Source of the DNA: a virus
IMG/VR virus record: IMGVR_UViG_3300038427_000078
Reading direction: 5' to 3' (one strand)
Length of the DNA stretch: 64,000 nucleotides
Made by a program: the position numbers and the translations under genes. Of this stretch, positions 12,044 through 61,904 are shown in pieces (the first letter of the stretch is position 1; each line of letters starts with the position of its first letter). Below the pieces are notes generated by a model. The model saw nothing but the letters and a program-made list of their open reading frames with translations, was not told the origin of the DNA and ran no database searches.

Positions 12044-12847
12044 ATGCCCAACCCACGCCTAGCCCGCTTGACCCTCTACGACTGGATCGATCTACCGGAA
12101 GAAAAAACTCCGGTCAAGCGCACGTCGCTACAGAGCCTTGAAACGCGGTTGGCCGAATTCATCTTCACGGCGGAAGCTGGGATCCGCCACGCGGTCAAAG
12201 AAGCCCCCGAACTCGAAACGCTGCCGGGGTACAAAGAAGCTGAAAACGAAGCTGGCGATGTGGCCTACGCCGAAAAGGAGCAACAGTTCTTCGCCTGGAA
12301 CGCCACCGGCAAAGTGTGGGTGCTGATCCCGGCTCCTCACTGGCGCGCTCCGGTGGGCAAAGCGGGCGAACTCCCCGAAGAAGGCAACGAACTTGGCGAT
12401 GTACGGGTGGACGAGGAAACGTTCCAGTTCTACGTGTGGCACGGGACCGAATGGAAAATCTTCAAACCAGTCGAAGCCGAAAAACACACTCACACCACCG
12501 AGACACTTACTTGGTCGGTAGCTGAAAAACTCACGGAAGAACCCATCATCCCCGGTGGTTTCCGTCGCGTCAACGCGGAATCGGAAGAGGAGTGCGAATT
12601 CTACGAAGTCGAATCTGTGTTGGGCCATGGCAAAGCCGAACTCGAAATCAAGGTCAATGGCACCGCTGTCAAATTCGAAGGCGGTAGCACCAAACTGAAA
12701 GTCACGACGGAAGCCAAAGCCAAGGCGCTAGAACCCAAAGTACGCCTCGGCGCTCACGACAAGATTGAACTCATAGTTTCCTCTGCGACAGAAGCCGAAG
12801 GACTGGCTCTATCCGCTTTCGTGGAACACATCGCTAAGGCGGTCTAG
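12044..12847 (+). CDS. putative virion structural/appendage protein
   Basis: W.D.P...TP....L..LE N-terminal motif and GDxxV...FYVWxGxxW repeats as in fibre proteins; late motif upstream. Confidence 0.65.
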   Translation: MPNPRLARLTLYDWIDLPEEKTPVKRTSLQSLETRLAEFIFTAEAGIRHAVKEAPELETLPGYKEAENEAGDVAYAEKEQQFFAWNATGKVWVLIPAPHWRAPVGKAGELPEEGNELGDVRVDEETFQFYVWHGTEWKIFKPVEAEKHTHTTETLTWSVAEKLTEEPIIPGGFRRVNAESEEECEFYEVESVLGHGKAELEIKVNGTAVKFEGGSTKLKVTTEAKAKALEPKVRLGAHDKIELIVSSATEAEGLALSAFVEHIAKAV

Positions 12848-12877
12848 ATCGCGCGATGAAATGAAAGGAGGTGAACG

Positions 12878-13105
12878 ATGCAATTTGTAGAAGGAGGAGA
12901 AATGGACGCGGGGTTGCCAGACGAAAAAGTTACTGTAAGCGCCCCGAGCGTAACTGCAAACTCCGTTATCTTGCTCACCCAAAACAACAATGGTGAAACC
13001 TTTCAGTCCCTTCGAGTCGAATCGAAAACACCTGGGACGGGTTTCGTTGTAAGAATCTCTGAACCCAAAGTCAAAGTCGGGTTCTACTGGATGGTGTTCA
13101 ATTAG
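12878..13105 (+). CDS. small beta-rich virion protein
   Basis: SD AAGGAGG; VTANSVILLT...GTGFVVR...FYWMV fibre-tip-like pattern. Confidence 0.6.
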   Translation: MQFVEGGEMDAGLPDEKVTVSAPSVTANSVILLTQNNNGETFQSLRVESKTPGTGFVVRISEPKVKVGFYWMVFN

Positions 13106-13107
13106 CG

Positions 13108-14001
13108 ATGTCCTTCCCAACCGTAACCCTGCTGGACTCATTCGTCCGAACCGAAAACCCGCTTGGCGTCACCAAAACTGAATGGCGAGAATTCTTCGAA
13201 TCCGGCACCAATAAAGGATGGTTGAATGGCTCCGAATGGGAAACGCTATCCGGTTTAACCATCGAAGGGGCTTACTGGCATCCGGCCACGTACTCAGAAC
13301 CCGGAGTAGCCCTTGAGTTCACGTTCGAAGACGAATACAGCCCCGGTAACTATTGGGCGGTCATGGCTTGCATCAGCAATCCGGAAGAAATTCATTTCAC
13401 CGGGTATCGCCTCAAGCTCACCACTTTGGGCAAAAAAGAAGGTGCGTCGTTCAAGTTCAAGCTCGAAAAGGCGGTGCTTGGCGTGTGGACGGTACTGGCG
13501 GAAACATCAGAAAGCGTCGTCATGGACAAAGAATATCGCTTTGGTCTATCTGTGCAAGGCGGCAAAGTCATCGGGTGGCGCAAAATCAAAGCGGGAGCAT
13601 GGGAAGAAATCATCAACCATGCCGACTCAGCTTACACCAGCGGTTATGTCGGGTTCAATGCTATCGCTCAGTTCGGTGACATCATCAACTTCGAAGCCGG
13701 TCCCGCAGAAGGTGGGCCTCCGGTTATCACAAATCCTGGCACCCGACACAGCGTCATCAGCAAAGCTCTTACCCGACAGATCAAAGCCACGAACACGACC
13801 GAATACAAAATCACTGGTCTGCCCGAAGGGTTGTCGTACAGTGAAGTCACGGGCTTGATTGAAGGTACCCCGACCAAACTTGAATCAACCAAAGTGAAAG
13901 TCACAGCCAAAGGGCCGGAAGGCGAAGACGAAATCGAATTCGAATGGATCATCGAAGAAGCCTCGGGATCCAAAGAGAACGTCACTTACATGCTGCTCTA
14001 A
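13108..14001 (+). CDS. virion protein with lectin-like beta-sandwich and C-terminal putative Ig domain
   Basis: DSAYTSGYVGF; PVITNPG...TGLPEGLSYSEVTGLIEGTPT...VKVTA (He_PIG-like). Confidence 0.7.
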   Translation: MSFPTVTLLDSFVRTENPLGVTKTEWREFFESGTNKGWLNGSEWETLSGLTIEGAYWHPATYSEPGVALEFTFEDEYSPGNYWAVMACISNPEEIHFTGYRLKLTTLGKKEGASFKFKLEKAVLGVWTVLAETSESVVMDKEYRFGLSVQGGKVIGWRKIKAGAWEEIINHADSAYTSGYVGFNAIAQFGDIINFEAGPAEGGPPVITNPGTRHSVISKALTRQIKATNTTEYKITGLPEGLSYSEVTGLIEGTPTKLESTKVKVTAKGPEGEDEIEFEWIIEEASGSKENVTYMLL

Positions 14002-16250
14002 TCAGCTAGGTCACGCTCGATCAGTACGGCCCGGTTGTTTCTCTGCTGTAGGTTGGTTTCCGCCAGCGGGGTGTCTCCTTCGAACTTGCTCGGTAGGTCG
14101 TCGCGTTCCTGTAGTCCCGACACCGGCTGTAGATCGAGGTCGGCAGGCGGTGACAGTTTCTCCTCGTAGGTGCCCGGTGCATACTCGATGACCTGTGGGT
14201 CTGTGAGCCAGTGAACGAGGCGGTCTGCTTTCGGTTCCTTCGGCAAGAACTCGACCAGATGGACGTTGCTAGGCTTGCGGCGTACTACCAGCCGGTCGGG
14301 TCCGAGAGCGAAGCGGAGGAAGCGGTTGAAGAACATGTGGACAGAAAACTTCAATGCCGCCTTGAAGCGGTGGATGATGGTTTTCTGTAGCTCCGCAGAG
14401 AACCCGACACTTGCCGCGAACCTCTGCACGTACGGAGGCAGCGGGAGCACCAGGCTGGCAACGAGTTTCAACTGCGCGATCAACTGGTGACGGATGGTAC
14501 GGCCCACGGACCCGGAGAAGCTGAGCGCCGCTTCGAACCTCTGCACGATGATTTCGGTGACCTTGCGAGGGCTGAGTGAACCCATGAAGGTGAGAGTTCC
14601 GGCCAGCCCCTTGAAGACGTTCTTACCGACGTAGCCTTCGCCCGTCAGGGTGGCGAGGAGGCCGTGGCCCATGTTGCGTGGCACCGATCCAACGAACGAG
14701 AGCGAGGCTTCGAGGGTCTTGCGGAGGTTGAACTGCTTCGGTAGTTCACCCTGGAAGGTGAGCGTGGCGAAGAGGCGCATGACGTACAACCCGGCTTCGC
14801 GCAGGTGTCCCTGAAATTCGAGTTTGGCGTTTAGCTGGTGAACGATGTTGCGAGGGAGTGACCCTTCTGAGGTCAGTTTCGCAGCGAACGTCTTGATGGC
14901 CTGCGGCACCAGGCTACCGGCGAATGAGAGTGCTGCCGTGAGGGTCTGTGTCACCCGTTTGCCAAGCGTACCTTCGGAGGTCAGTTCCGCCGCTAGCCCG
15001 TGCTCGGTTGACCGTTCAAGGTTGCTTTCAGATGACAGCGCAGCGCTAAAGCGACGGTAGATGTTGCGCGAGAGCGAACCTTCCGAGGTCAGTTTGGCGC
15101 TTAGCTGGTGGAGGATGTTCCGAGGTAGGTTGCCTTCGGCGGTGAGTTCCGCAGCGAGGCTCTTGATCGGTCCCGGCATCATGCTACCGACCTGTTCCAG
15201 CAGTGCCGTTAGCTGGTGAGTGGTCTTGCGCTGTAGAGTGCCTACCAGTTCCAGCATCGCCCCGAACTGGTGCGTGATCTTGCGCTCAAGGGTACCCACG
15301 AACGGCAGCGCTGCGGTCAGGCGGTAGTTGATGTACCGACCGAGTTCCGCGACCGATGTGAGTTCCGCTGCAAGCTGGTGCGTTGTCTTCCGAGGAAGGG
15401 ATCCGACGAAGGGCAAGGTTGCCTCCATCTGATGCACGATGTTACGGGAGAGTTCTCCGGATGAGGTCAACGTGGCTCGTAGGTATTCGACGGTTCGAGG
15501 CATGTTCCCGCTGACTTGCAGAGTTGCCTTGAGCGGATGAATGGTGAAGTCCAGTAGGGAGGTCATGAAGCCAACCGTAGCCCGAAGGTCATGCGTGATG
15601 TTGCGCTGAAGCTTGCCGCTGAGTCCGAGGGTGGCTGTGAGGTAGTACACAAACTTGGACATCGCTCCTTCCAGCCCCAGCGTGGCCGCAAACTGGTGAG
15701 TGATGTTGCGACCGAGTTCTCCTGCCGACTTGACCGTAGCTTCAAGCCTGTGCTGGGTGGTAGATGACAACGACCCTGTGAAGGTCAGGGTTGCTGTTAG
15801 TGCCTTGGCGATGTTTCGAGGCAACCGACCTTCCATGGAAAGAGTGGCCGATAGGCCGTGAACCATAGAACGTTCAAGGTATCCGGCGAAGGAAAGGGTG
15901 GCCGATAGAGCATGGAAAATGTTGCGTGGCAAGCTGCCTGCGAACTTCAGAGTGGCCGTCAATAGATAGAAGATGTTGCGGTCCAACGCGCCAGAGAACT
16001 TCAGTGTTGCTTCGAGTGTCTTGCGAAGATCAAATTCCTTGCTCAAAAAGCCAGAGAACTTCAGTGTTGCGGAGAAAGAGCGAGAGATGTTGCGGGGCAA
16101 CGCTCCGAGGGATTTGAGTGTTGCTGACAGTTTGTGGTACGTGTTGCGTTGTAGCTTACCGGCAGAGGTCAACGTCGCCGTCAGGACCTTTTCGATGACG
16201 CTCGGTCCTCCGGCAAGCTCCTCCTCCGCTAGCGGATCATAGCCGAGCAT
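13998..16250 (-). CDS. 750-aa protein with about 30 tandem ~18-aa repeats (fibre/scaffold candidate)
   Basis: Repeat consensus L-x-A-x-L-x-F-x-G-x-L-x-R-N-I-x-H-x; follows tail-fibre-like gene. Confidence 0.75.
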   Translation of the reverse strand: MLGYDPLAEEELAGGPSVIEKVLTATLTSAGKLQRNTYHKLSATLKSLGALPRNISRSFSATLKFSGFLSKEFDLRKTLEATLKFSGALDRNIFYLLTATLKFAGSLPRNIFHALSATLSFAGYLERSMVHGLSATLSMEGRLPRNIAKALTATLTFTGSLSSTTQHRLEATVKSAGELGRNITHQFAATLGLEGAMSKFVYYLTATLGLSGKLQRNITHDLRATVGFMTSLLDFTIHPLKATLQVSGNMPRTVEYLRATLTSSGELSRNIVHQMEATLPFVGSLPRKTTHQLAAELTSVAELGRYINYRLTAALPFVGTLERKITHQFGAMLELVGTLQRKTTHQLTALLEQVGSMMPGPIKSLAAELTAEGNLPRNILHQLSAKLTSEGSLSRNIYRRFSAALSSESNLERSTEHGLAAELTSEGTLGKRVTQTLTAALSFAGSLVPQAIKTFAAKLTSEGSLPRNIVHQLNAKLEFQGHLREAGLYVMRLFATLTFQGELPKQFNLRKTLEASLSFVGSVPRNMGHGLLATLTGEGYVGKNVFKGLAGTLTFMGSLSPRKVTEIIVQRFEAALSFSGSVGRTIRHQLIAQLKLVASLVLPLPPYVQRFAASVGFSAELQKTIIHRFKAALKFSVHMFFNRFLRFALGPDRLVVRRKPSNVHLVEFLPKEPKADRLVHWLTDPQVIEYAPGTYEEKLSPPADLDLQPVSGLQERDDLPSKFEGDTPLAETNLQQRNNRAVLIERDLAD
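14340..16185 (-). repeat. degenerate ~54-bp coding tandem repeat
   Basis: Periodic LxAxLxxxGxLxR units across the translation. Confidence 0.75.
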
Positions 16251-16252: not shown

Positions 16253-18118
16253 TTACACCAACTGGAACGTCACTCCATCGAAGGAGAGATAAGAGTTCGT
16301 TTCAGCGCGGTTTTCGACAACACCCGTGGTCTGGATGATAAGCTGCACAACTGATCCCGCAAGCTGCTGGATGTTGATAAAGACAGTTTCCGCAGGCCGG
16401 AATCCTTCGGGAAGCTGGAAGATTTTTGTGCTGGCAGGAAGTGCCGCGTTACATAGAACCGTGCCATGGATGCGAGCCGAAGCTCCATCATTCTCCCATC
16501 GTACTTGTGTTGTACGAGATTCCGTTTTCGAGGTATAGGATTCTAGCGCAGTCCAGGGACCTACCGAGCTTGGCAACCATTCCTGCGCCGTTGTACCGAC
16601 CACCGTAACACCGAACCTCTGTGAGTAGCGCTTACCCTGATTCTGTGTCCCCGCTTCGACCATTACACATGCCTCGGCAAGTTCTTCCGACGTGTTCGCA
16701 TCTCCGGTACGGGTGAGTACCCATCTCGTTTTCCCGGAACTGCCGAGGGTGGTCACTTCATAGATGCCATCTTGCTTGGATTCGCTCTGATTCTTGACAA
16801 GGACACGTCCATGCAGGGCCGGAATGCTGCCGTCAATGGTTAGAGGTTCTTCTTCGCCTGTGAGCGTGGTTGAGGTTTCACTATGGATCGTAAGCGCTTT
16901 AGTCGTCGCGTAAGCGACAGGTACCTTCCACGATTTACCAGGACCGCCAGTCGCTCCTGTCGCACCCTGTGGCCCTTGTGGCCCTTGTGGTCCTGCTCCT
17001 ACTCGGTTGACTGAGAGGCGGTTCTTTCCAGCTTCAATTATGAGCGCCTTTTCGACTCCGCTGTTGTAGCCCACCAGTTCGATTTTGTCGCCTTTTGCAC
17101 AGTAGATGATGCCGCTAACGGAAGAGCCGTTGTACGCTTCTCCACCCTCCGAGGTCATACTTCCTGCCAGGGCCGCTACTCCGTTGACCCAAATGTTCGC
17201 GACCAAGTAGGCATTGGCCGCTGGTACAGCGAGAACCTCACCGTCTACGTGGTAGTAGCCAGTGGCAGGGACCGTGTAGAATTCGTTAGCACCGATGTTC
17301 GAGCCAGGGTCCTTGATGACGGAGTTGAGTTTGATTTTCGTGTTAGTTGCTGCGGCCAAGTTCTGCGCGGAGTTGCGGTAGGCCATCCCGATAGATTCTT
17401 CGACCAGCTTGTTTTCCGGTCCTGCTTTGCCGGGAGTTGGCATCGGAGCGATGTATGTGTCACCAACGGTCGTGTCGAATTCGCCTTCAACGTTCGCTGT
17501 TTCCACCACTTCAACTTCGACTTCGTAGCATTCCACATGGGACATGAGGCCAACAATTTTCGCAGGCGGATTGATCGCCCGGAACAAGATGTTGTTCTGA
17601 GGCTTGCTGGTCTGCGCGACTACGAACAGGGTACCCGCTGGCAAGAGTTCCTTGAGCTTTTTGCCCGCCGCTTCGTCATAGGTGCCTTTGATCCCGAAGT
17701 AGACTTTCGTGACCGATTTCGGTTTTTCGGAGTTGAAGTTGATCGAACGAGTGTGTTTCGACTGTTCGTATTCAGCGAGGTAGTTGAACGAGAAGGACGG
17801 AGTACCCGCAGCGAGCCTGAGCGATTCGGCGGTCGGCAGCACGTAGACCGCAGTCGTTGCGATGTGTGCTACTTTGGTCGAACCCTCCGCTCCCCGTTCG
17901 AGGACTTTGACGTTTTTGGTGTTTTCTTCCTTGGCTTCGCAGAGGATAATCTCGCTACCAACCGTGATGCGATACTGGCCTGGTTTCTGAAGCTGGGTGG
18001 GAACATTGGCTACGAATTCGAGTTCGGTACCAGCTTCGCTCAATTCGACGTTGAGCGTCGTGATCGGTTCACGTTTGCCGGGAGTCGGGCTATTCAGAAG
18101 TAGCTCAGGAAGGGCCAT
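16253..18118 (-). CDS. tail fibre-like protein (C1q-like domain, short collagen segment, fibre domain)
   Basis: YTVPATGYYHVDG C1q-like; GPQGPQGPQGATGATG; WK.PV..ATT...RVLVKNQ....DGIYEV...WVLTRTGDAN; C-terminal IFQLPEGFRP domain. Confidence 0.78.
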   Translation of the reverse strand: MALPELLLNSPTPGKREPITTLNVELSEAGTELEFVANVPTQLQKPGQYRITVGSEIILCEAKEENTKNVKVLERGAEGSTKVAHIATTAVYVLPTAESLRLAAGTPSFSFNYLAEYEQSKHTRSINFNSEKPKSVTKVYFGIKGTYDEAAGKKLKELLPAGTLFVVAQTSKPQNNILFRAINPPAKIVGLMSHVECYEVEVEVVETANVEGEFDTTVGDTYIAPMPTPGKAGPENKLVEESIGMAYRNSAQNLAAATNTKIKLNSVIKDPGSNIGANEFYTVPATGYYHVDGEVLAVPAANAYLVANIWVNGVAALAGSMTSEGGEAYNGSSVSGIIYCAKGDKIELVGYNSGVEKALIIEAGKNRLSVNRVGAGPQGPQGPQGATGATGGPGKSWKVPVAYATTKALTIHSETSTTLTGEEEPLTIDGSIPALHGRVLVKNQSESKQDGIYEVTTLGSSGKTRWVLTRTGDANTSEELAEACVMVEAGTQNQGKRYSQRFGVTVVGTTAQEWLPSSVGPWTALESYTSKTESRTTQVRWENDGASARIHGTVLCNAALPASTKIFQLPEGFRPAETVFINIQQLAGSVVQLIIQTTGVVENRAETNSYLSFDGVTFQLV

Positions 18119-18139: not shown

Positions 18140-18562
18140 TCATACTTTGCCAGCTTCGTACCGAGCTAGAACCTCTTTGGCCCATGCGATTGCATCCTCT
18201 ACCCTTTGGCCCTTGGGATGCGAAGTGATCCAAAGCTCTAGATTCTCGATTCTGTTGTCCGCCCGATTCCCGTGCTTATGATGAACCTCCTCGTCGGGTA
18301 GAAGCGGGCGTCCAAGATGTTCAGCCATGACTAGACGGTGCTCAAGTACATATCCGGTGCAGTCCGCGTTAGGATGTGTCGGGAAGTACCTCCTCACATA
18401 CCCTCTGGTCGTGAGGTTGGTTTCACCAGGACCACCATTGGTGCGGTACTTGACGCAGAAGCCCGGATCGCCGTATAGACGCAGACGTTCGTAGTGCTTT
18501 TTACAGTATCCCTTCGCCATGTGGCGTCGGTTGCATCCCTTGAAAGAACAAGTGCGCTTCAT
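18140..18562 (-). CDS. HNH homing endonuclease
   Basis: [40 protein letters not shown]. Confidence 0.92.
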
Positions 18563-21147
18563 GCCTTACCTGCTTCCTGGACGGCACTCCAAATCTCCGG
18601 AGTGCTCAGGTGCATCGTATTGCGCATGTGCTGCATGAGCGTTTCTCCCGGAAGACCTTCAAGTCGCTCGCCAGTTTGAGGGTGGATGAACCACGGCGTA
18701 GGCTCGTCAGAAGCGACGTGCCACTGTGCACTACTTAGATGCTGGTACGGCACCGCGTTCTGCGGCACGGTCGGGGAGATGTTGTCCTCGTAGTCCTTGC
18801 CAACCCGTTCACCTTCCGGCTTGGTGAGTTCCCACCACGGCGGTTCCGGCCACTTCTCGTCGCCCTTGAGGGTGCTTTCCTCTTTCTTCCAGTCAATGTT
18901 GTGGTAGTCTTCCGGTTCCAGCACCTTGAGTCCTGAGTGGTCCTGGTGCTCGCCTGGGCCAGAGCGCTTGTAGTCCCACATGCCCCATTGGAACGCTCCG
19001 AGCGGGATGTGGCTGTATCCTGCGGCGTCACGGCGAGCCTGTAGTTCACGCTCCATCTTGAAGTAGTCACGGTTGTTCATTTCCTTTTCGGAACGGCCAA
19101 GCACATCGAGCATGTGACTGTCGATGGTGGCTAGCTGGGACTTGAGCGGCTGTAGGAGGAGCCACGCAAACGAGCAGACCTTCGGTCCCACGCCAGGGAC
19201 TTTGAGTTGCATCACAGAGGCGCGGAAATGGTGGCCTGCGCCGTCGTGCTGATGAACGTCTTCGAGCGCCGCCTTGAGGATGTCCTCGACGTAGAAGCTG
19301 ATCTTGGCGATGGCCTTGAGATGGGGGCCCATGAACGCGCCGTAGCGATCCTTCGGATCCTGCACTTCCGGCTCAGTGGCGTCTAGCTGGAACATCTGTT
19401 CCTGGGCCGGGTCTGCGACGGCGGCTTCGTGGAATCCTTCGGCTTCATCGAGCGAGGTCTGTCGCTCCTTGATGTACTTCTGGATGCGAGCAGCGAGGCG
19501 CTTGTTCGCCTCGTTTTCGACTTGGTACATGACCCGCTTCTTGTCCTCCGGAAGATCACGTTCCTCCCTCATCACCTGTTCCTGCTCCTGTGTCTCCCAA
19601 TCGAACAGAAGCCGTTCGAACTTCTTGTTGGCCTGCTGTGGGTTCACTTTGCGCTTGTAGGTACGGTACACGATGTCACGCAGTTGCGGGAGCAGCTTAC
19701 CGTACGGGCGATGCGCGTAGCGTGCGTCCTCGCCCCAATTCTTGACGTTCCCCGCTTGACGGTGCTTCTCAAGGTGACGCCAGAGGTCGGTCGGATCCGT
19801 CGAGCGGGCATCCATCAAGTCCTGGTAGTGAACCGTGTTCCCGGAGATGGCTACCTTTCCATTGCGGCGAGTAACCATCGTTTCGCTTGGCAAGGAGAAA
19901 CACCATACGCCCCCATGGTACTCAACTTTCGTAGGTCGGGGTAGACGAGTCGGATGTCCGGGGTTCATGGATACCTTCCACTCGTTTGTTTCTGGACGAA
20001 TGAGACTGACCATAGCTCTGATGCCACAATGAACAGCTAGCCTTTGTACGTCGTGCGCTAGCACTGTGCTGCTTGTGTAAAAAGCAGCGCCTTGGGTCCA
20101 ATCCCAATTTTCGTCGGCTGTACCATCTCCCATAAGTAGAGCATGCAACAAAATCCTAGCCTGTCTCGCCCCGAGGTCGAAGACAAAACGAGGCAGCCTC
20201 TTGTACCGCGCTCCGTTACCTATGTGCCTGGATGTCCATTGCCCAAGTTGCTTTGCATGAGGCTTACGAGCCGTCCAAATCCATTGCCCATCATCTCGTT
20301 CTGTGCTAGTTCCTATCCCCATATTTTTGCATGCTTCCTTGACAGACTCTATCACGGGAGAGGCATTGGCCTGACAGACACTAGGATGTTGACGACTCGT
20401 CAACGATCCCTCAGAAATGTACCAACCAAGCCAGCGCAGCCATGTGTCCATGGGCACAGTCAAATCCGGATGGAACGATTTTGAAATGCGCCCAGGTTTC
20501 TTGTAATCGCGCATCGCACAGCCTGGTATCGTGAACTCCTCTACGTCAAATCCTCGTTTGATTCCGGCCATTGGAACCTGGGGACGCTCATTGTTACGAC
20601 CAACCCCGGTGAAGATTTGATCTGCTGGAATGAACTCTTCCTCTGATGTCAGCATGCGATGGTTCGGCGTGACTAGCATATCCACAAAGCGTCCTTGGAA
20701 CGCGATAAGCTCTCCGTCAAAGCGTTGTTCTACGAAACGCTGCGGTCGCTCGTAGACAATACGACCGGCTTTGTACGCTGCTACCCTGAAATCGGACTCT
20801 CCCCATTGATAGCGAAGATCAGACAAAGACATCCAACCTCGATTGGTCAAGGCTTCTGTCTTCTCATCATGACAATTCCAGCGGAGGTTCTTGCGAGGGC
20901 TGAGGAGCACGGCACGGAAGGCGTTTTCGATGGCTTCCTCCATCTGGCGCTTGTCGGGTAGTGACTCCCACTCGGTGTTGATGAGAGCGGCGTTGTCCAT
21001 CACCTGTTGACCCTGTAGCGGGTCTTCTCCGTTCTCGTCGCGGAAGCTCATGAAGGCGTTCGGCTCTCGTAGCTGTACGCCCGTGTCGAATCCCTCGTTC
21101 GGATCGCGGAGAGTGGGATCGACTTCGTTTTTGACAGGAGGAGCCAT
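18559..21147 (-). CDS. intein-containing protein with C-terminal HhH DNA glycosylase/AP-lyase-like domain
   Basis: [11 protein letters not shown]...ATIDSHML...Y..ME...LGAFQWGMW resembles HhH-GPD/8-oxoG glycosylases; spliced product about 516 aa. Confidence 0.7.
19837..20874 (-). mobile_element. intein (346 aa) with LAGLIDADG endonuclease domain
   Basis: Starts [14 protein letters not shown]; block B VTPNHRM; LGWYISEGS and LLMGDG motifs; ends [13 protein letters not shown] followed by Thr; lower GC than flanks. Confidence 0.92.
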
Positions 21148-21503
21148 CAGCGATTCTTCTCCGGATGCTCGACCTCGGCGTGGCAGTTACCGCAAAGCAG
21201 ATCGCACTTCACAATCTCCTCTAGGATCCTTGACCACTTACGAGTGATGTTTGAACTGACTGGAAAGCTCTTGGTTGTTGGATCACGGTGATGGTAGTGC
21301 AGGGCCGCAGAGTTCCTATCGTATTTGCATTTGTCACATCCTCGCTCTAGCTTCATAGCATCGAGTTGTTCGCGACGTTCTGCTTCCAGGGAGTTCCGTT
21401 CTTTTCCATACTCCCGCATTCGGGCTAGCTTTTTCTCATGACCCGGTAGGTCTTTGCGGCGACGATCATAGGCTTTCCGATCCTGTGGATTCTTGTAGGG
21501 CAT
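21147..21503 (-). CDS. HNH homing endonuclease
   Basis: CDKC...ALHYHHRDP..K...EIVKCDLLCGNCH. Confidence 0.88.
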   Translation of the reverse strand: MPYKNPQDRKAYDRRRKDLPGHEKKLARMREYGKERNSLEAERREQLDAMKLERGCDKCKYDRNSAALHYHHRDPTTKSFPVSSNITRKWSRILEEIVKCDLLCGNCHAEVEHPEKNR

Positions 21504-21506
21504 GAT

Positions 21507-23254: not shown

Positions 23255-23285
23255 CAACCTTTACTTGTCCGAAGGGTAATGGATG

Positions 23286-23423: not shown

Positions 23424-23432
23424 TAGACGATG
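23420..23432 (+). promoter_or_regulatory. representative copy of putative phage late promoter GTAA-N4-YG-ATG
   Basis: GTAATAGACGATG; about 20 similarly spaced copies before late genes. Confidence 0.7.
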
Positions 23433-38872: not shown

Positions 38873-38882
38873 GGAGGTCGGC

Positions 38883-39068: not shown

Positions 39069-39097
39069 CTAGCGCTCGTCCTGTGACGTAAAGAGCG

Positions 39098-51745: not shown

Positions 51746-51782
51746 GACTCCATAGTAGCAGATTCCCGCACAGTAAAGGGTG

Positions 51783-52265: not shown

Positions 52266-53110
52266 TCGGCACCATCGCAGTCCGCTTCGACATCGGCCAG
52301 ATCAACAAAGGCGACACCGCCGAGTTGAAATCCGCGCTGCGGGTTGCCGATGGCGTGGTGGAAGCCAACGAAATCGCGTCCGTCACCTACACGGTCCAGC
52401 GACCGAACGGCATCCTCGAAGAGCCGGTCGAAGGTCGCATCGAACCAAATGGCGAAGGCTACTTCCAGTGGACCGAAACCGAAGAAGAAGGCAAATACAT
52501 CGCGCAGGCACAGTACCTACTCACCACAGGTGAGATTCGATCTTGCCTCGTCAACTTCACTGTTGAGGATCCCTTCCTCATAGACAACCAGCTTGAACAG
52601 ATTCTCGCAGAGGAGGTCTGGTTCAGGCTCGAAGACTGCTTCGAAGCTGTCGAAGGAGGCCCGTGGCTCCGCGACGAAACGCTGGCGAACTTCGATGAGA
52701 CTAAGATCCGTCGATTCATTCCCGAGGTACTGCTCGACATCAATGTGCAGTCGCCGTTGACCCGAGCCAGCCTTGGCGAATTCGTGTCGCTGGGTTCAAG
52801 CAACCCCAATCTTCCACTACTCGCCAAGGGCGTGCTCTGCAAGACGATTCAACACATGGTCCGTTCATACGCCGAGGTCGCCGTTCCAGTCGGCGGACAG
52901 GTTGTCTACGAAGAACGCGCGAACTACTGGCAGCGTTGGCAGACCATCTACAAGTCGGAGCACGAAGACTACTACACAATGGTCCGCCTCTGGAAGCGTG
53001 GATTCCTCGGATACGGCAAATCCGCTCTGCTCGTCAGCAGCAAGGCGGGTCGCCTCTTCTACGGCTCCGTGCAGCGCACCCGGAACGCAGGAAGGGGTGG
53101 CTATTACTAA
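52262..53110 (+). CDS. head-tail adaptor/neck protein with N-terminal Ig-like domain
   Basis: Synteny; RLEDCF...GGPWL...DIN...RSY.E...W..I. Confidence 0.6.
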   Translation: MIGTIAVRFDIGQINKGDTAELKSALRVADGVVEANEIASVTYTVQRPNGILEEPVEGRIEPNGEGYFQWTETEEEGKYIAQAQYLLTTGEIRSCLVNFTVEDPFLIDNQLEQILAEEVWFRLEDCFEAVEGGPWLRDETLANFDETKIRRFIPEVLLDINVQSPLTRASLGEFVSLGSSNPNLPLLAKGVLCKTIQHMVRSYAEVAVPVGGQVVYEERANYWQRWQTIYKSEHEDYYTMVRLWKRGFLGYGKSALLVSSKAGRLFYGSVQRTRNAGRGGYY

Positions 53111-55923: not shown

Positions 55924-55965
55924 GAGAACTGATTTCTTGGTCGGTACTTGCTGGTAAATGACGAT

Positions 55966-56379
55966 ATGGATAGAGATTTTGGTCATTGGCTTGCTGGTTT
56001 CATTGATGGAGAGGGATGCTTCACCATCGTCAAAAATAGAGGATCCTGGCAATGCAATTTCGCGATATCCGTTCGGTCCGATGACGGTGCAATCTTGATA
56101 CAGGCCCGCGATTGGCTACAGGCCGGTCACATCTATCAGGCTCCTCGTAACCAGGGGCGAAATCCCATGGTCGAGTGGCGTATTGGCAGTTTAGATGATT
56201 GTTTAGCCCTCATCCAGTTGCTAGACGAGTGTCCTCTTCGAGCCAAGAAGGCAGCCGATTATCGAATCTGGCGCGAGGCCATATTTGCCAAACAAGAAAG
56301 CGACAATCGCAAGATAGGATCCCTAGCCCAAGTCCTCAAAGCAGGACGGGCTTACAAACTCGCGTCATCGCCTTGGTAA
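55966..56379 (+). CDS. LAGLIDADG homing endonuclease (single motif)
   Basis: WLAGFIDGEGCF...PLRAKKAADYRIW. Confidence 0.92.
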   Translation: MDRDFGHWLAGFIDGEGCFTIVKNRGSWQCNFAISVRSDDGAILIQARDWLQAGHIYQAPRNQGRNPMVEWRIGSLDDCLALIQLLDECPLRAKKAADYRIWREAIFAKQESDNRKIGSLAQVLKAGRAYKLASSPW

Positions 56380-56382: not shown

Positions 56383-57897
56383 ATGAGATTCATGGCTCCT
56401 CACTACATCCCACCTGGCGTTACGATCACTGAGGCAGTACAGCCTCAGATTGTTCCTCTCGTCACATCCACCGCAGAACTCGTCATCGTCGGTCAAGCCG
56501 GAGGCGTCCAGACACGAACGGACCAGATCGTCGTGGGCAAAGCAGGTACGGAACAGGCGCTTCCCTACCTAGCGCAAGTCCCGCATACCAAACTCGTTGG
56601 CGAAAAACCGATCAAAACGGTCATCAACACCTTCCACCCGTCAGAACCGTCCGGTTCCAAAGGCAAAGGCTACAAAGAAGGCGAATCCTGGGAAATCAAA
56701 TCCGAAAAGTTCGTGAACAAGGAAGGGGAACACCCGATCCCGGAGGGCACCGTGGTCAGCATCACCTACACCTTCATCGCGGGCAACTACTACAACCCGA
56801 TCCGGCTCTTCGATGCTTCCGAAGTCCAGTCGCGGTTCGGTGAACCCATCGTCGGCGGCAAAGTCGCCTCTCCGCTATCCCTAGCGGCAACCAAGGCATT
56901 TGAAAACGGAGCACAGACAGTCATCTGTCAGCCGTTGTTCAAGACCTCATCCGGCTCGCTCGAATACAACCAGCTTGGCTACATCGTCAACGGTGAAGCC
57001 CTGACCGAAGAAGAAGCCGAAGAACCGACGCATTGGGCCACGACCCTACAGGCTCTCGGTACCGTCGAAGTCATCGACATCCTCGTTCCGGTCAGCGGCG
57101 TCGAAGAAGTTCTCGACAAGGTGCTCCAACTAGAGCAGGACCGGGCGTACGAACAGCAGTACGTCTTTGGGGTCTACGGGACCGACACAACGGTCACTGC
57201 GAAAACCGCTGCCGAAATCCGCACACTGGCGAAAGCTCTTGCAGGCTACGCGAGCGGTGCGTACTCACAGCAGAACATCCTCATCAATACCAGCAGCTTC
57301 AACGTCCGCGCTTCGCAGAGCGAAGAAATCCAGGTCGGCGGTCAGTACGTGGCCGCAGCCATCGCCGGTAAAATGGCTGGCTCACCGGCCTCACAGTCTC
57401 TCACCCGTCAGCCGATTGGCGGCTTCCGCGCTGTCAACGATCACCGCAACTCGTCTGAAAAGAACCTCGACGCCGAAAACGGCCTCATGGTCGTGGAGGA
57501 AATCAAGGGCGGATCCATCCGCATCCGCCACGGCATCACCATCGACACCGAAGGTGGCGCTGCCCGCTCTGAGGTATCCGTGGTCAGGGCCAAGTTCAAC
57601 GTCATCGAATCAATCCGTGAAACCCTCGAAAATCAGGTCATCGGCAAGATCATCGCTGACTCGAACTCTCCGGTCATCGTGCGCTCAGCCATCAGCGCTG
57701 TGCTAGCGGTGCTCGAAAGGACTCGCCAGATCGTCGGCTACAACATTCCGGAAGTCAAAGTGGCTTCTCTAGAACCGACGACTCTCGTCGCATCGTTCAG
57801 CTACCGTCCAGCCTTCACCGTCAACTACATCGACATCGTGTTCCAGCTTGATCTCTCAAGCCAGAGCGTGACCGTGTTCGAAGAACAAAAAGTCTGA
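56383..57897 (+). CDS. tail sheath protein (start may be 56392)
   Basis: YIPPGVTITE...RFG...SLAA..AFENGA...AAAIAG...SLTRQ...RIRHGIT...YRPAF.VNYI. Confidence 0.88.
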   Translation: MRFMAPHYIPPGVTITEAVQPQIVPLVTSTAELVIVGQAGGVQTRTDQIVVGKAGTEQALPYLAQVPHTKLVGEKPIKTVINTFHPSEPSGSKGKGYKEGESWEIKSEKFVNKEGEHPIPEGTVVSITYTFIAGNYYNPIRLFDASEVQSRFGEPIVGGKVASPLSLAATKAFENGAQTVICQPLFKTSSGSLEYNQLGYIVNGEALTEEEAEEPTHWATTLQALGTVEVIDILVPVSGVEEVLDKVLQLEQDRAYEQQYVFGVYGTDTTVTAKTAAEIRTLAKALAGYASGAYSQQNILINTSSFNVRASQSEEIQVGGQYVAAAIAGKMAGSPASQSLTRQPIGGFRAVNDHRNSSEKNLDAENGLMVVEEIKGGSIRIRHGITIDTEGGAARSEVSVVRAKFNVIESIRETLENQVIGKIIADSNSPVIVRSAISAVLAVLERTRQIVGYNIPEVKVASLEPTTLVASFSYRPAFTVNYIDIVFQLDLSSQSVTVFEEQKV

Positions 57898-57918: not shown

Positions 57919-58620
57919 ATGGCATCAGAATTCTTGAAATCCAGAGGTCGAGTCGGTGGTTCCGGCTTCACCGTATTCACCTTCGGCGGACAGCCAATCG
58001 CGTTCTGCCAGCAGGTGTCCTACACCAGCCCCCAGCCAGTCGGCGGAGGCGCTTCCCCTATTCAGCCGATGGACGAGCCGTACCCGGTTGAGATTATGAC
58101 GCCCGCCGCAGCAGGCATGGGCCAAGTCGTACTCAACTTGTTCGAGCTTTTCGGATCCAACGGCATCGCATCGAAGGTGTGGGACCGTCTAGGTCTATCC
58201 CTCGGTGCCGGGTTCAGCGCAAGCAACCCATTCGGAGCCAACACTCCGGAAAACCAGTCAACGAACTTCACCCTCACAGGCGAAACCGTCAAGAACGAAC
58301 AGAGCGCACCATTTGCGGGCGCTGTGGACATCGTGGACGTGTTCGTCCGTCAGGCACAGACCGAAGCCCACAAGCTACAGATCGTCAAGATCGTTCGCCC
58401 GCTCAACCCGAACGGACCTCCGGGTAACGCCGAAGTCCAGCCGTACACAGAAGAGTACCACGGCTGCGCGATCACGAACATTCAGGATGGCGAGCAGATT
58501 TCTGTCGGCACGATGGAAATCCTCAAGCAGATCACGGTCAACTTCTGCTACGTGACCCGTAACGGACAGACGAGCCTCGCGTTCAAACTCCGTAACGACC
58601 CACTAGCCGCTGCTGGCTGA
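57919..58620 (+). CDS. tail tube protein
   Basis: Follows sheath; RVGGSGFTVF...P.P...IQPMDEPYPVEI.TP...YHGC.I. Confidence 0.8.
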   Translation: MASEFLKSRGRVGGSGFTVFTFGGQPIAFCQQVSYTSPQPVGGGASPIQPMDEPYPVEIMTPAAAGMGQVVLNLFELFGSNGIASKVWDRLGLSLGAGFSASNPFGANTPENQSTNFTLTGETVKNEQSAPFAGAVDIVDVFVRQAQTEAHKLQIVKIVRPLNPNGPPGNAEVQPYTEEYHGCAITNIQDGEQISVGTMEILKQITVNFCYVTRNGQTSLAFKLRNDPLAAAG

Positions 58621-58648: not shown

Positions 58649-58990
58649 ATGGCTTTCGACAAGAAAGCATACATGAGGGAGTATCGACCAAGGTATCGTC
58701 AAGAACATCCTGAGAAGAATCGCGACTATCAGAGGAAGCGCGAACAGGAAAGACGCGATCTATTCGCGGATATCAAGACCAAAGCCGGTTGTGCTCGATG
58801 CGGATACAAAGACAACCCATATGGACTAGAGTTTCATCATCGCGACCCAAGCGAAAAGAGTTTCCCTATCGCTCATGGTTCCAAACGTTCCCTCAAAGCG
58901 ATACTAGCAGAGATTGCAAAGTGTGATGTCCTTTGCGGTACATGTCATTCTATCGTAACTCACGATCCGGAGGTTAGGTCAAATGTCTGA
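58649..58990 (+). CDS. HNH homing endonuclease
   Basis: CARCGY...LEFHHRDP..K...EIAKCDVLCGTCH. Confidence 0.88.
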   Translation: MAFDKKAYMREYRPRYRQEHPEKNRDYQRKREQERRDLFADIKTKAGCARCGYKDNPYGLEFHHRDPSEKSFPIAHGSKRSLKAILAEIAKCDVLCGTCHSIVTHDPEVRSNV

Positions 58991-59537
58991 GGAGACTCAG
59001 GAGCAAGGTGAGAAGGGACCAGAGAAGGTCGAACCGTTCAAGCTGTTCTCGCCACGTATTCAGGAGGCGGTACAGGGACTCTTGTTCCTGGGCCATTTGC
59101 AGAAGGATTTCAACTTCTGTGGACACAACTTCACGCTTCGCACCCTCCGCCCTGCGGAGAGAGCCGCTATCGCCGTGGTCATCAAGCCGTGGCGCGAAAC
59201 CATCGCTGAGCCGGAAGTGTGGGCGAACGCTCAGGTGGCCGCAGCCCTTGTCTCCATCGACGGCTACTCTGACTTCTTGCAGCAGGCTGGACCCGACCTA
59301 GAGTCGCACGTTCGCGCACGACTGCGCTACATCACCAACTCAGAGACAGGCTGGTACGGACCGACCATCTCGTTCCTCTACGACTGTCTCCTTGGCATGG
59401 AAGACGAAGCGCTGAAAGCGCTGAACGAGCTACAAAATTTATCACAGAGGGATCTGGACCAATTGCGACCCTCGCCAGATTCCTTAGAGACACCGGGTAC
59501 CTCACCCGACGAGACAACCTTGGACTTCCCCTCCTGA
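58983..59537 (+). CDS. tail assembly chaperone (gpG-like)
   Basis: Between tube and tape measure; GHNFTLRTL; contains slippery heptamer. Confidence 0.78.
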   Translation: MSEETQEQGEKGPEKVEPFKLFSPRIQEAVQGLLFLGHLQKDFNFCGHNFTLRTLRPAERAAIAVVIKPWRETIAEPEVWANAQVAAALVSIDGYSDFLQQAGPDLESHVRARLRYITNSETGWYGPTISFLYDCLLGMEDEALKALNELQNLSQRDLDQLRPSPDSLETPGTSPDETTLDFPS

Positions 59538-59782
59538 ACGCGCTCCACCTGGAACTGGTGCAGTACCTCGCCCAGCTAGACGAGGAGGCGAAGGACCGCG
59601 AAGCCGAAGGTGAAATGGAGCGCAACATCTTCGCGACCAACCCGGCTCTATGGAAGCACATGTACGCTCCGAACATGAACGAGGACGGCGAAGTCATCCT
59701 CACACCGGGTAGCCCGGAGGAGTTGAAGGAAATGGCCGCAGAGTGGGGCTTGACACCCGAGGAAATAGCCGAACTCGGATGA
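58983..59782 (+). CDS. tail assembly chaperone, -1 frameshift product (gpGT-like)
   Basis: A-AAT-TTA at 59435-59441; the -1 frame is open to TGA 59782. Confidence 0.78.
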
Positions 59783-59813
59783 TGAAATAGCGAGGGGCGG
59801 GGCGTAATAGCTG

Positions 59814-61904
59814 ATGGCCGACGAATCTCCACAGCCGATTGATCCGCAGCGCTCGCTCAAACGTTCGCTTGACCAGCTAACACAGGCGGTGCGGTCGATG
59901 AACAAGCACCTGGAATCCCTCGACGCTGAGGGCCAGGGCCAGTACATCGAGGGCCAGAAAGAGTCGAACGCAGCGAAAAAGATCCGCGAAGCATCGTGGT
60001 CTATGCAGGAGGCTAGAAAACCCTCCTCCCAGCTACAGCAGCCGGGTTCACTCAACCCCGACGCCTCTATCTCTGACGCGATTGCGTCGATCAAGTCGGC
60101 CTACGAGAACCAGAATGTGAACGCGGTTCAGCGGGCCGCTGATATGGTCAATAAAGCGGGCACCATGAGGCTACCAGAAGCGGAAGCTCAGGAAGCCAAA
60201 GAAGACGAAGCGAACTACTACCAGGAACTCCAAGACAAGCGCATGACTGGCCTGGGATGGATGACCCCCGACAAGATGGAAAAGCTGCGCGCAGAAACTC
60301 CGCATCTCAAGGGCTACTCCTACGGCAATTGGGAACGCAAAGCAAGGGTCGTTGAAAGCCGAGTCGGTGGAGCGCAAGCCTACGCAACTAAAGCCGCAGC
60401 CAAGATGGGTGAAGAAGGTCACGAAGGACTGGCGAATGCTTTCGGAAGTGTTGCCAAGGGCGCAGGCAAGATAGAAGAAAATGCCATGCCTATCGTCATT
60501 GGCGTAGACATGGCAAAGCGAGCCTGGGCAGGAATGGAAAAGGGACAGAGGAACGTTATCGAAGGTACGGGCCTGGGCTACTCCGGTGAAGGCGTACCTG
60601 GCGGTCAGTTCCTACCAGGAGGTATTCGTAACCCGCTGGCTCTCTTCACCGAAGCTGGTCAGCAAGGGTTCGGCATCAAAGCCGCTGCCATCGAAAACGC
60701 CCTCAAGGGTAACCTTGGGTTCGGTGAATCCGCCAAGCTGTCTGAAAACCTCGCCAGCCTGGGATTCAGCAACCGACACGGCAGCGGTATCCCAGGCTTC
60801 CTCGGCCTGGACAACAGCGGTCGCAACCAAGAACTTGTGGAACTCGGCAGCAAAGCGAAACGAGAGGGCTTGCCGGAAGCCGAGTTCGTGAAAATGGCCG
60901 AAGGCATCAGGTTCGGTGGAGGTTCGATCAAGCAGTTGAACGAAAACATCAACGGGCTAGGCGAAGCTGCCAAGAATGCTGGAACCAGCACGAAGGTACT
61001 GGCCGAAAGCATGAACGAATACGCCGCCCTCACCGAAAAGGAAGGACCGAAAACAGCGCAGGAACGCAAGGGCAGGGAAATCTTCGAAAACACAGGTAGG
61101 CCCGCGAAGCTGACTGCCGAAGTGAACAACACGGCGCTAGGCAAGGCGACGGCTGGTCGCTACGGGATCCTCCCTGGCACCATTGGCAACACCAAAGGTG
61201 ACTTCCAGAACGCCATTGAATTGCAGACCATCGAACAGGCCGCTCACATGACGCGCGGTGGTGTGGTAGCTCACATCACGAACCCGGAAACTGGTGAAAC
61301 GATCACCAGCGGTAACTCGAAGGAAATGCAAGCTGCCGAAATGTCCAAAATCTACGGCATCCCGCCGCAGCTAGCGATGCTGTATCTCAACGACCCGAAG
61401 AAGTTCAAGCAGTCCGAGTTCGCGGGCGGTGAAATCTCCAACCACATCAAGCGTCTACAGGCCGAGCAGAAGTCAGGTCTGCCAGGATACAATCAGGGAG
61501 CCGAATGGGGCAAGCTGTGGGGTGCCACGGACGATCTTATCACCGCAAAGCAGTACCAGGCCGACTACAAGATCGACAAAGGAGGCATCAAGTCACAGCA
61601 GGCGTTGCAGGCGCAGGTTGACGAAGCCAAAGAAAAGCTCAATGAACAGCAGGGCAACGGTCAGGGCGAAATCACACTCAGCAAGGAAGCTCAGCGATTC
61701 TTCAAGCTCAACATGCCGAAACAGTATGCGAAGTTCCAGAAGGAACGTGAAAAGGAAGAAGGCAAGTCGGGAGCGCAAGGAGCTACGAAACCAAGTACGG
61801 GCAAGACCTCGATACCAGGAGAAGCCTTGGGTGCTCTAGGCAACGCGGCTCAGGCGGGGGCCGAAGCTCTGCCTAACCTCGCTCTTCACGCCTTCCTACC
61901 GTAA
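59814..61904 (+). CDS. tape measure protein
   Basis: Ala/Gly/Glu/Lys-rich helical 696 aa directly after chaperones. Confidence 0.72.
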   Translation: MADESPQPIDPQRSLKRSLDQLTQAVRSMNKHLESLDAEGQGQYIEGQKESNAAKKIREASWSMQEARKPSSQLQQPGSLNPDASISDAIASIKSAYENQNVNAVQRAADMVNKAGTMRLPEAEAQEAKEDEANYYQELQDKRMTGLGWMTPDKMEKLRAETPHLKGYSYGNWERKARVVESRVGGAQAYATKAAAKMGEEGHEGLANAFGSVAKGAGKIEENAMPIVIGVDMAKRAWAGMEKGQRNVIEGTGLGYSGEGVPGGQFLPGGIRNPLALFTEAGQQGFGIKAAAIENALKGNLGFGESAKLSENLASLGFSNRHGSGIPGFLGLDNSGRNQELVELGSKAKREGLPEAEFVKMAEGIRFGGGSIKQLNENINGLGEAAKNAGTSTKVLAESMNEYAALTEKEGPKTAQERKGREIFENTGRPAKLTAEVNNTALGKATAGRYGILPGTIGNTKGDFQNAIELQTIEQAAHMTRGGVVAHITNPETGETITSGNSKEMQAAEMSKIYGIPPQLAMLYLNDPKKFKQSEFAGGEISNHIKRLQAEQKSGLPGYNQGAEWGKLWGATDDLITAKQYQADYKIDKGGIKSQQALQAQVDEAKEKLNEQQGNGQGEITLSKEAQRFFKLNMPKQYAKFQKEREKEEGKSGAQGATKPSTGKTSIPGEALGALGNAAQAGAEALPNLALHAFLP

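Follow-up and report, generated by a model that had tools for sequence, protein, structure and literature searches.

The window analysed here, a 64,000-nucleotide stretch of the IMG/VR virus record IMGVR_UViG_3300038427_000078, is part of a large myovirus genome and contains genes for the capsid, prohead protease, sheath, tube, tape measure and baseplate. Many of its virion genes spell glutamate mostly as GAA, use AAA for lysine more often than the other genes do and are poor in aspartate. The choice between GAA and GAG, and between AAA and AAG, is fixed site by site across the clade to which the genome belongs, and all four clade genomes examined carry a five-armed tRNA with the anticodon UUC. 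We refer to the genome of the window as W.

Closer relatives were collected from IMG/VR by a scan with the capsid protein, and seven contigs were read fully or almost fully; the capsid proteins of these relatives are 70-89% identical to that of W. We use G1, G2 and G3 for the clade relatives and G4, G5 and G7 for the outgroup contigs. A scan of IMG/VR with the sheath as the single query found no relatives, whereas the capsid query did find them, and a megablast search of the tail region against phage records gave no match. Among named phages the closest are cluster C-type actinophages such as Myrna, Rhodococcus phage E3 and Gordonia phages, with about 54% identity in the capsid protein and only about 28% in the sheath; between W and G1 the corresponding values are 88% and 53%. 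By sequence comparison W, G1, G2 and G3 are one clade of myoviruses of about 160-172 kb, distant kin of the cluster C mycobacteriophages. The GC content is 57% in G1, 52% in G2 and 58% in G3, and 47%, 45% and 64% in G4, G5 and G7. G1 to G7 form one phage lineage that spans 45-64% GC while its capsid proteins stay 72-88% identical to that of W, which makes it suitable for studying how codon usage tracks host changes.

We grouped genes by the GAA fraction of their Glu codons: class A comprises genes with a fraction of at least 0.7 (16 genes, 4855 codons) and class B those with a fraction of at most 0.5 (48 open reading frames (ORFs), 9494 codons). We called the genes ourselves, and a few of the small ORFs in the GAG-type set may be spurious. 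The genes that define the pattern are as follows, with GAA and AAA given as shares of the Glu and Lys codons.

12044-12847, plus strand: class A gene with no assigned fold; Glu 42, Asp 6, GAA 37/42, AAA 15/21.
12878-13105, plus strand: small class A ORF; GAA 6/6, AAA 4/4.
13108-14001, plus strand: class A gene with a C-terminal immunoglobulin-like domain (Pfam He_PIG, E 2e-7); Glu 35, Asp 6, GAA 33/35.
13998-16250, minus strand: 750-residue repeat protein that by segment codon counts follows the pattern only in its first ~640 codons.
16253-18118, minus strand: class A fibre-like protein with a collagen-like GPQ/GAT run; Glu 53, Asp 11, GAA 46/53.
22865-23257, minus strand: small class A gene; GAA 10/12, AAA 6/8, orthologue GAA fractions 0.75-0.79.
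23430-24413, plus strand: class A virion protein with an internal codon switch near codon 115, by segment codon counts.
24418-24906, plus strand: class A gene; Glu 17, Asp 1, GAA 14/17.
32303-33261, plus strand: two class A genes (32303-32704 and 32704-33261) just upstream of the GAG-type head genes; GAA 9/10 and 20/24, Asp 4 and 3.
33280-42039, plus strand: contrasting block of GAG-type, Asp-rich head-internal genes (33280-37167, 37973-38872 and 39511-42039).
42138-42764, plus strand: GAA-type gene abutting the capsid gene; GAA 9/12.
42767-43867, plus strand: major capsid protein (phrog_2522, E 5e-90), GAG-type overall; GAA 9/32, AAA 0/14.
51780-53110, plus strand: two class A or intermediate virion genes (51780-52265 and 52262-53110); GAA 9/10 and 19/29.
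56383-57897, plus strand: tail sheath (phrog_2839, E 1e-43), class A; Glu 44, Asp 12, GAA 39/44.
57919-58620, plus strand: tail tube, intermediate; GAA 8/13.
58983-59537, plus strand: contrasting GAG-type gene, tail assembly chaperone-like; GAA 5/18.
59814-61904, plus strand: tape measure, called by position, class A except for its first ~110 codons.
61913-63567, plus strand: two tail/baseplate genes (61913-62734, class A; 62731-63567, intermediate); GAA 23/27 and 18/27, Asp 9 and 8.

The orthologues of the gene at 12044-12847, which has no match in Pfam or PHROG, have GAA fractions of 0.88 in G1 and 0.95 in G2, and those of the gene at 42138-42764 have 0.89 in G1, 0.91 in G2 and 0.67 in G3. 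In the contrasting block the GAA fractions of the three genes are 0.38, 0.30 and 0.16, with Glu/(Glu+Asp) at 0.51-0.59; the first encodes a 1295-residue head protein and the last is a prohead-protease fusion with a PHROG protease match. The tape measure was assigned from its place between the chaperone and baseplate genes, as in Myrna and E3, and the chaperone-like gene has a weak match (23% identity, E 7e-6) to a Myrna frame annotated as tail assembly chaperone. The fibre-like protein at 16253-18118 matches virion structural and head decoration families in PHROG; its collagen-like run GPQGPQGPQGATGATGGPG is short and precedes the C-terminal domain that gives these matches. The minus-strand repeat protein at 13998-16250 consists of about 30 tandem units of about 20 residues with the pattern L.ATL.F.G.L.RN, for which no family match was obtained. 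An AlphaFold model of the 23430-24413 protein (pLDDT 82) had no significant match in a Foldseek search against PDB; structural alignment with VIA-align placed it closest to tail, fibre and baseplate proteins of phages (9h4p, Z 10.6; 24qj, Z 9.5; a third, Z 7.9), which supports calling the GAA-type genes virion genes.

GAA-type and GAG-type genes alternate inside one gene run (the genes at 42138 and 42767 are 2 bases apart), and in three genes the regime switches internally. The 23430-24413 gene has GAA 2, GAG 2, Asp 6, AAA 0 and AAG 7 in its first 115 codons and GAA 19, GAG 3, Asp 3, AAA 15 and AAG 3 thereafter. The repeat protein has GAA 29, GAG 7 and Asp 5 in its first 640 codons and GAA 4, GAG 5 and Asp 10 in the last 110, and the tape measure has GAA 3, GAG 5 and Asp 7 in its first 110 codons and GAA 55, GAG 4 and Asp 12 in the rest. 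An earlier note, made from the sequence of the window alone, had described its exposed virion proteins as remodelled to Glu/Lys-rich, Asp-poor sequences coded by GAA and AAA. Its manual counts for 12044-12847 (42 Glu, 6 Asp, 5 GAG) and for 24418-24906 (17 Glu, 1 Asp) are exact, and the genes at 33280, 37973 and 39511 are indeed GAG/AAG-type and Asp-rich. The switch that it placed after roughly 90 codons of the 23430-24413 gene is real but lies near codon 115, and the gene at 42138-42764, which it had counted within the same regime, shares the preference for GAA but lacks the Asp deficit.

Over 53 genes the use of GAA and GAG is bimodal and heterogeneous (chi2 341, 52 degrees of freedom, p 4e-44). 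Class A has 373 GAA and 65 GAG codons (85% GAA) and class B 249 and 541 (32%), an odds ratio (OR) of 12.5 (p 1.5e-77); for AAA and AAG the counts are 159 and 132 (55% AAA) against 124 and 363 (25%; p 5.5e-16). The Asp share of codons is 2.4% in class A and 6.6% in class B (p 5e-30), and Cys, His, Met and Trp are also scarcer in class A. The description of these proteins as Asp-poor thus holds within W, but they are not Glu-rich by the standard of the same genome (9.0% Glu in class A versus 8.3% in class B), and their enrichment in Glu and Lys emerges only in comparison with orthologues in related phages. Only two of the 18 degenerate amino acids, Glu and Lys, differ in codon choice between the classes; the remaining codon families, including Gln CAA/CAG and all C/T-ending pairs, are used alike in both, which excludes a foreign origin of the class A genes and a general expression-linked bias. 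In most other families of the window, G-ending codons outnumber A-ending ones. GAG is depleted in the reading frame alone, at a ratio of 0.23; the other two frames give ratios of 1.03 and 0.67. CTC shows no change, so the effect belongs to translation and not to a DNA or RNA motif. Genes on both strands follow the pattern relative to their own coding strand, and the coding strand of GAA-type genes has a positive AT skew.

The dichotomy is also present in the orthologues of G1, G2 and G3, whereas G4, G5 and G7 show no between-gene GAA/GAG dichotomy, and the per-gene table of Myrna shows no gene with a GAA preference and tail proteins that are Asp-rich. Sheath proteins illustrate the change in composition: Glu/Asp counts are 44/12 in W, 49/13 in G2, 37/17 in G1 and 22/18 in G3, compared with 9/17 in G4, 11/22 in G5, 15/34 in G7 and 24/37 in Myrna, and Asp exceeds Glu in the sheaths of Myrna, E3 and Stormageddon alike. 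In class A orthologue sets Glu makes up 9.0% in W, 7.4% in G1, 7.6% in G2 and 5.4% in G3, and 2.9, 3.0 and 4.7% in the outgroups; Lys is raised in W, G1 and G2, and Ser, Thr, Gln, Asn and Asp are lowered. The class B sets, mostly enzymes and head genes, are unchanged (Glu 8.4-9.0% versus 7.3-8.1%). Among 242 homologues of the 23430-24413 protein, distant members have 1-2% each of Glu and Lys; in W and its near relatives Glu reaches 6-8% and Lys 7-10%, at an unchanged Asp content (W itself 8.0% Glu and 7.6% Lys). The shift in composition is therefore specific to this lineage, consists mainly of a gain of Glu and Lys, and is limited to virion proteins. This bears out the view of the earlier note that the remodelling is lineage-wide and directional: it is found in W and three relatives, and not in Myrna, E3, Stormageddon or the outgroup contigs, and distant homologues do not share the composition. 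The positions that gained these residues are variable and carry mostly polar residues in the outgroups, and in a predicted beta-strand of the 23430-24413 model the gained charges fall at alternate positions. We judged exposure from conservation, from outgroup residue types and from the strand pattern of this one model. The divide that the note drew between exposed and internal proteins is approximate: the regime includes the tape measure, which lies within the tube, and the capsid protein takes part only at its few variable sites.

The codon difference extends below the level of genes. In alignments with Myrna, E3 and Stormageddon, GAG codons of the W capsid gene stand opposite Glu in 37 of 69 cases and GAA codons in 3 of 21, with GAA confined to non-conserved sites; the corresponding figures are 8 of 14 and 8 of 105 in the sheath, and 10 of 15 and 2 of 21 in the tube. 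We scored codon concordance between pairs of genomes at aligned sites where both keep the same amino acid. For GAA/GAG the OR is 24.5 between G1 and G2 (table 439/90/162/813), 18 between W and G1, 25 between W and G2 and 7 between G1 and G3, and for AAA/AAG it is 6.6-24 across clade pairs, whereas the codon choice for Gln, Asp, Asn, Phe, Tyr and His is near random between clade genomes (phi 0-0.3). Stratification by gene leaves Mantel-Haenszel ORs of 5-17 for Glu and 7-15 for Lys, and values of mostly about 1-2, occasionally higher, for the other six. In class A genes of W and G2, Glu codon identity is 0.93 where 0.63 is expected and Lys codon identity 0.72 where 0.49 is expected, with all other families at random expectation; this rejects the possibility that synonymous sites are simply unsaturated. 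Heterogeneity among domains was likewise rejected as the only cause, since the next Glu site gives an OR of 2.5 and the same site one of 24.5, and a domain effect cannot account for so large a difference. The outgroup pair G4-G5 (OR 1.2) and the pair G2-G4 (OR 1.3) show no site-level effect. The GAA fraction ranges from 0.14 to 0.22 where every outgroup has Glu in the aligned column, and from 0.41 to 0.67 where no outgroup has it. Between G1 and G2 the exchange of GAA for GAG (9.5%) is as rare as that of GAG for Asp (9.3%), while GAC and GAT are fully mixed. We found no dependence on flanking bases or neighbouring residues and only a weak effect of the reverse-complement context. A regular-expression search for the codons of catalytic Glu residues (RecA, SNF2, DnaB, RNase H, Walker B) gave mostly spurious matches and was dropped. 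In this clade, GAA/GAG and AAA/AAG are fixed site by site.

The tRNA genes of W lie outside the window and were read on its own 172,635-bp contig (ENA ERZ4200889 NODE_91; L160), identified by exact protein matches. A tRNA(UUC) with an extra hairpin of 5-7 bp in the D-loop is present in all four clade genomes, always between tRNA-Pro(CGG) and tRNA-Pro(UGG). The copies located with the Rfam tRNA model include:

W, L160 10883-10978, minus strand: five-armed tRNA(UUC), 96 nt.
G1, L086 14788-14882, minus strand: five-armed tRNA(UUC), 95 nt.
A clade relative, L113 14710-14804, minus strand: five-armed tRNA(UUC), 95 nt.
G3, L098 4848-4942, plus strand: five-armed tRNA(UUC), 95 nt.

The G1, G2 and G3 copies fold into a cloverleaf with a fifth arm, and nine base pairs show compensatory changes among them, which affect every stem, the additional one too. 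In L158, a near-identical strain of W, the anticodon loop is CUUUCAA and the D-loop hairpin has 7 bp closed by UUCG. ARAGORN reported no tRNA-Glu(UUC) in G1, G2 and G3 and labelled the W copy 'tRNA-???', whereas the Rfam model found all of them; annotators should therefore expect ARAGORN to miss this tRNA or to fail to assign its anticodon. G1, G2 and G3 carry 32-47 tRNA genes, including tRNA-Glu(CUC). W has about 30, among them tRNA-Glu(CUC), tRNA-Asp and, adjoining the five-armed gene, tRNA-Lys(UUU), so that both anticodons that the earlier note had proposed to look for, UUC and UUU, are present; no tRNA-Lys(CUU) was seen in the stretch of W that was read. The tRNA-Glu(UUC) genes of G4, G5 and G7 are of ordinary length, and the odd tRNA, the gain of Glu and the fixation at single sites co-occur in one clade. 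The tRNA islands also carry a transfer-messenger RNA gene (L160 7387-7784, minus strand; L098 967-1392, plus strand), and bacterial RNase P RNA is weakly matched in G1 (L086 7031-7427) and G3 (L098 7569-7870), at scores far under the gathering score of Rfam.

The explanation that we favour, tentatively and as somewhat less than probable, combines a re-charging of the virion in the stem lineage with two unequal tRNA channels, the A-ending codons serving new residues and the G-ending codons inherited ones. The stem lineage of the clade would have re-charged its sheath, baseplate, fibre, tape measure and decoration-type proteins by gaining Glu and Lys in place of Ser, Thr, Gln, Asn and Asp, mostly at positions where relatives vary. 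The gained residues would have been spelled GAA and AAA, while Glu and Lys residues from the common ancestor kept GAG and AAG; with derived residues spelled in one way and inherited ones in the other, the GAA-type genes are those genes and domains that contain many derived sites. That the split is actively maintained site by site implies that the infected cell does not treat the members of a pair alike, probably because each has a tRNA of its own. The five-armed tRNA(UUC) of the phage would serve GAA and the phage tRNA-Lys(UUU) AAA; GAG would fall to the ordinary phage tRNA-Glu(CUC) and AAG to a CUU tRNA supplied by host or phage. This assignment in vivo is our inference. Virion genes would favour the A-ending channel for bulk decoding and retain the G-ending one at positions where the identity of the residue is critical, in what we take to be a trade-off of speed or supply against fidelity. 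Changes in the D-arm alter decoding speed and fidelity and trade the one against the other (PMC11805395), which makes a kinetic or fidelity difference of this kind plausible. The driver of the gain in Glu and Lys may have been virion stability or surface charge.

Several observations weigh against this combination of re-charging and unequal channels. The four genomes are one clade, and the association with the odd tRNA thus rests on a single evolutionary event. Gln has two phage tRNAs yet shows no codon split, and the Lys split is present though the phage tRNA-Lys(UUU) looks ordinary; this split is also largely gone in G3, which has CUU tRNAs, but kept in G2, which has one CUU tRNA as well. 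Between G1 and G2, GAA sites stay Glu about as often as GAG sites (56% versus 60%), so that GAA sites are not simply unimportant. Columns that are invariant Glu in the outgroups are GAA in all three clade genomes 10 times where about one such case is expected, an excess that a pure rule by which important sites use GAG does not predict.

An alternative, which we think unlikely, is that late or highly expressed genes have adapted as whole genes to the phage tRNA pool, with no meaning attached to single sites. The approximately 30 phage tRNAs, including those with UUC and UUU anticodons, and the nature of the GAA-type genes as virion genes are in line with this, and late genes of Shigella phage Sf14 are reported to match their codon usage to the phage tRNAs (PMC12482277). 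However, adaptation of this type should not stop at two of 18 degenerate amino acids, and it should not leave the capsid gene, the portal-region genes, the protease fusion, the 1295-residue head gene and the chaperone gene all GAG-type. The alternation of GAA and GAG genes in one run, the switches inside genes, a site-level effect tenfold above that of neighbouring sites, and the presence of a phage tRNA-Glu(CUC) also argue against it.

Selection on the protein surface towards Glu and Lys and away from Asp, with codon choice incidental, was the inference of the earlier note. It fits the amino acid shift: the gain of Glu and Lys and the loss of Asp are real, lineage-specific and restricted to the virion, the outgroup residues at gained sites are mostly polar, charged residues alternate along the predicted strand of the 23430-24413 protein, and Cys, His, Met and Trp are depleted in class A. 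It gives no reason, however, for 85-94% GAA in a genome where G-ending codons lead most other families, nor for the fixation of GAA and GAG at single sites while synonymous sites are otherwise saturated; moreover, the tape measure follows the regime from inside the tube, and the capsid protein is mostly GAG. As the sole cause, surface selection is already contradicted by the codon data, and we consider it improbable in that pure form.

Could GAA have ceased to be plain Glu? The five-armed tRNA(UUC) might be mischarged, ambiguously charged or modified, with conserved Glu avoiding GAA. The D-arm, the altered part of this tRNA, is an identity element for glutamyl-tRNA synthetase in E. coli, and site fixation is limited to the clade that bears the odd tRNA. 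The exchange of GAA for GAG is as rare as that of GAG for Asp even though GAC and GAT are randomised, and the pattern resembles the relocation of CUG to non-conserved positions in Candida (PMC4428446). On the other side, where all outgroups have Glu, 64-70% of clade positions are GAG, 13-17% GAA and 4-6% Asp; GAA at this level corresponds to ordinary background usage, about three times that of Asp, and conserved sites have not been purged of it. Where G1 and G2 both have GAA, Glu is the commonest residue in G4 (0.28) and in G3 (0.39), followed by Gln, Asp, Ser and Thr, while Myrna, E3 and Stormageddon show no dominant residue at GAA sites (Asp 0.12, Glu 0.10). GAA is not interchangeable with AAA, GAY or CAR, and the exchange patterns between clade genomes reject a reading as Lys, Asp or Gln. 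Fixation also holds for the AAA/AAG pair, whose tRNA-Lys looks ordinary, and G3 has AAG Lys at many former AAA sites. No gene for a clade-specific enzyme acting on tRNA was found among the seven genes specific to G1, G2 and G3, most of which are of fibre type, and Pfam gave no significant match for the four of them that have no counterpart in the window. The over-dispersion of GAA among invariant Glu columns, and the similar conservation of GAA and GAG sites within the clade, sit uneasily with plain synonymy. GAA is probably still read as Glu in this clade, and a tRNA that delivers something else is a doubtful explanation. We hold equally doubtful its consequence, namely that GAA and GAG are no longer synonyms, that a non-plain residue occupies about 8% of virion positions with true Glu on GAG, and that the phages carry a split of a sense-codon box.

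A bias of mutation, or a sequence motif in DNA or RNA, that makes and keeps GAA and AAA would fit the positive AT skew on the coding strand of GAA-type genes. It runs counter to the tests of frame and context, however, and is very improbable: the effect is frame-specific, independent of flanking bases and neighbouring residues, only weakly related to the reverse-complement context and bound to the coding strand of genes in both orientations, and across the same span of divergence the CAA and CAG codons of Gln and every fourfold site have become random. A mosaic origin of GAA-type genes or domains from phages with other codon usage, suggested by the common mosaicism of tail and fibre genes and by regime changes at domain boundaries, is already contradicted and barely credible, given that all other codon families are alike in both classes, that the pattern persists between genomes saturated at other synonymous sites, and that it acts at single sites in vertically inherited, alignable capsid, sheath and tube genes.

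Parts of the pattern are already known from other systems, both in the matching of late genes to phage tRNAs and in codon choice by conservation. Cowe and Sharp reportedly described in 1991 that the codon usage of T4 late genes is matched to phage tRNAs, and in Sf14 the same holds for late and structural genes (PMC12482277). As in these late genes, we find a tRNA-rich phage whose virion genes prefer Watson-Crick-read codons (GAA with UUC, AAA with UUU). However, only two codon pairs are involved here, the divide crosses operons, genes and single sites instead of temporal classes, the capsid gene lies on the other side, and the phage supplies a tRNA for the avoided GAG. Selection for translational accuracy, with favoured codons at conserved residues, is said to have been described by Akashi in 1994 and by Stoletzki and Eyre-Walker in 2007; its reported effects amount to ORs of roughly 1.1-1.5 over many amino acids. 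The phages of this clade are similar in that conserved Glu and Lys take one codon and less conserved ones the other, but the ORs are 7-25, only Glu and Lys and only one clade are affected, and the codon at less conserved sites is also held fixed. The closest formal parallel is the ambiguous decoding of CUG in Candida, where CUG codons were relocated to non-conserved positions (PMC4428446): in both cases the codon of an unusual tRNA is found mainly at non-conserved and probably exposed sites, with other codons prevailing at conserved sites of the original residue. The purging of conserved sites that defines the Candida case is not seen in these phages: here GAA is still used in 13-17% of invariant Glu columns and has Glu as its commonest outgroup counterpart.

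Other parallels concern the tRNA and the proteins. D-arm mutants with changed decoding speed or fidelity include the Hirsh suppressor tRNA-Trp G24A and LeuZ A25G (PMC11805395). As in these, the altered part of the five-armed tRNA is the D-arm hinge region, which tunes acceptance by the ribosome; unlike these laboratory-selected point mutations, it is a whole covarying hairpin of 5-7 bp in natural phage genes. In crAss-like and Lak phages, stop codons in late genes are reportedly recoded by suppressor tRNAs (Ivanova and colleagues in 2014, Borges and colleagues in 2022). Their virion genes, too, are full of a codon whose efficient reading would need a phage tRNA, but GAA is a sense codon with a normal host reader. 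The charged-versus-polar bias of thermophile proteomes that Suhre and Claverie are said to have described in 2003 likewise raises Glu and Lys and lowers Ser, Thr, Gln and Asn; in contrast to that proteome-wide bias, the shift here is confined to virion proteins and leaves the enzymes of the same genomes unchanged. In the literature we found no report of two synonymous pairs fixed site by site this strongly, or tied to a five-armed phage tRNA.

Many evolutionary methods rest on treating synonymous codons as interchangeable at single sites; across this whole phage clade two codon pairs behave like different letters. Under either cause, decoding channels of unequal speed and fidelity or altered decoding, ratios of nonsynonymous to synonymous substitution (dN/dS) for these phages are biased where GAA/GAG and AAA/AAG changes count as neutral. 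If the channels of unequal speed and fidelity are real, they would be by far the strongest natural example known to us and would give a function to an odd viral tRNA; altered decoding, if true, would be the first viral case of a split sense codon.

Seven ORFs of homing-endonuclease type are scattered among the structural genes of the window, six of them HNH-like and one LAGLIDADG-like by motif, the latter backed by a Pfam match on the equivalent ORF of a related contig.

18140-18562, 21147-21503 and 22460-22852, minus strand: homing-endonuclease-type ORFs, by sequence motif.
37203-37637, 39098-39511, 55948-56379 and 58649-58990, plus strand: homing-endonuclease-type ORFs, by sequence motif.

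The codon usage of these ORFs is unlike that of the rest of the genome, with a GC content at third codon positions of 0.44-0.57 and T-ending codons common, and strain-level contigs vary in which of them they carry. Two minus-strand ORFs of the window, 21507-22463 and 18559-21147, both match one 831-residue ORF of G1 and have an HNH gene between them, and the second of the two contains an intein-like insert with a LAGLIDADG-type segment. The gene at 18559-22463 (minus strand) appears to have been interrupted twice by selfish elements.

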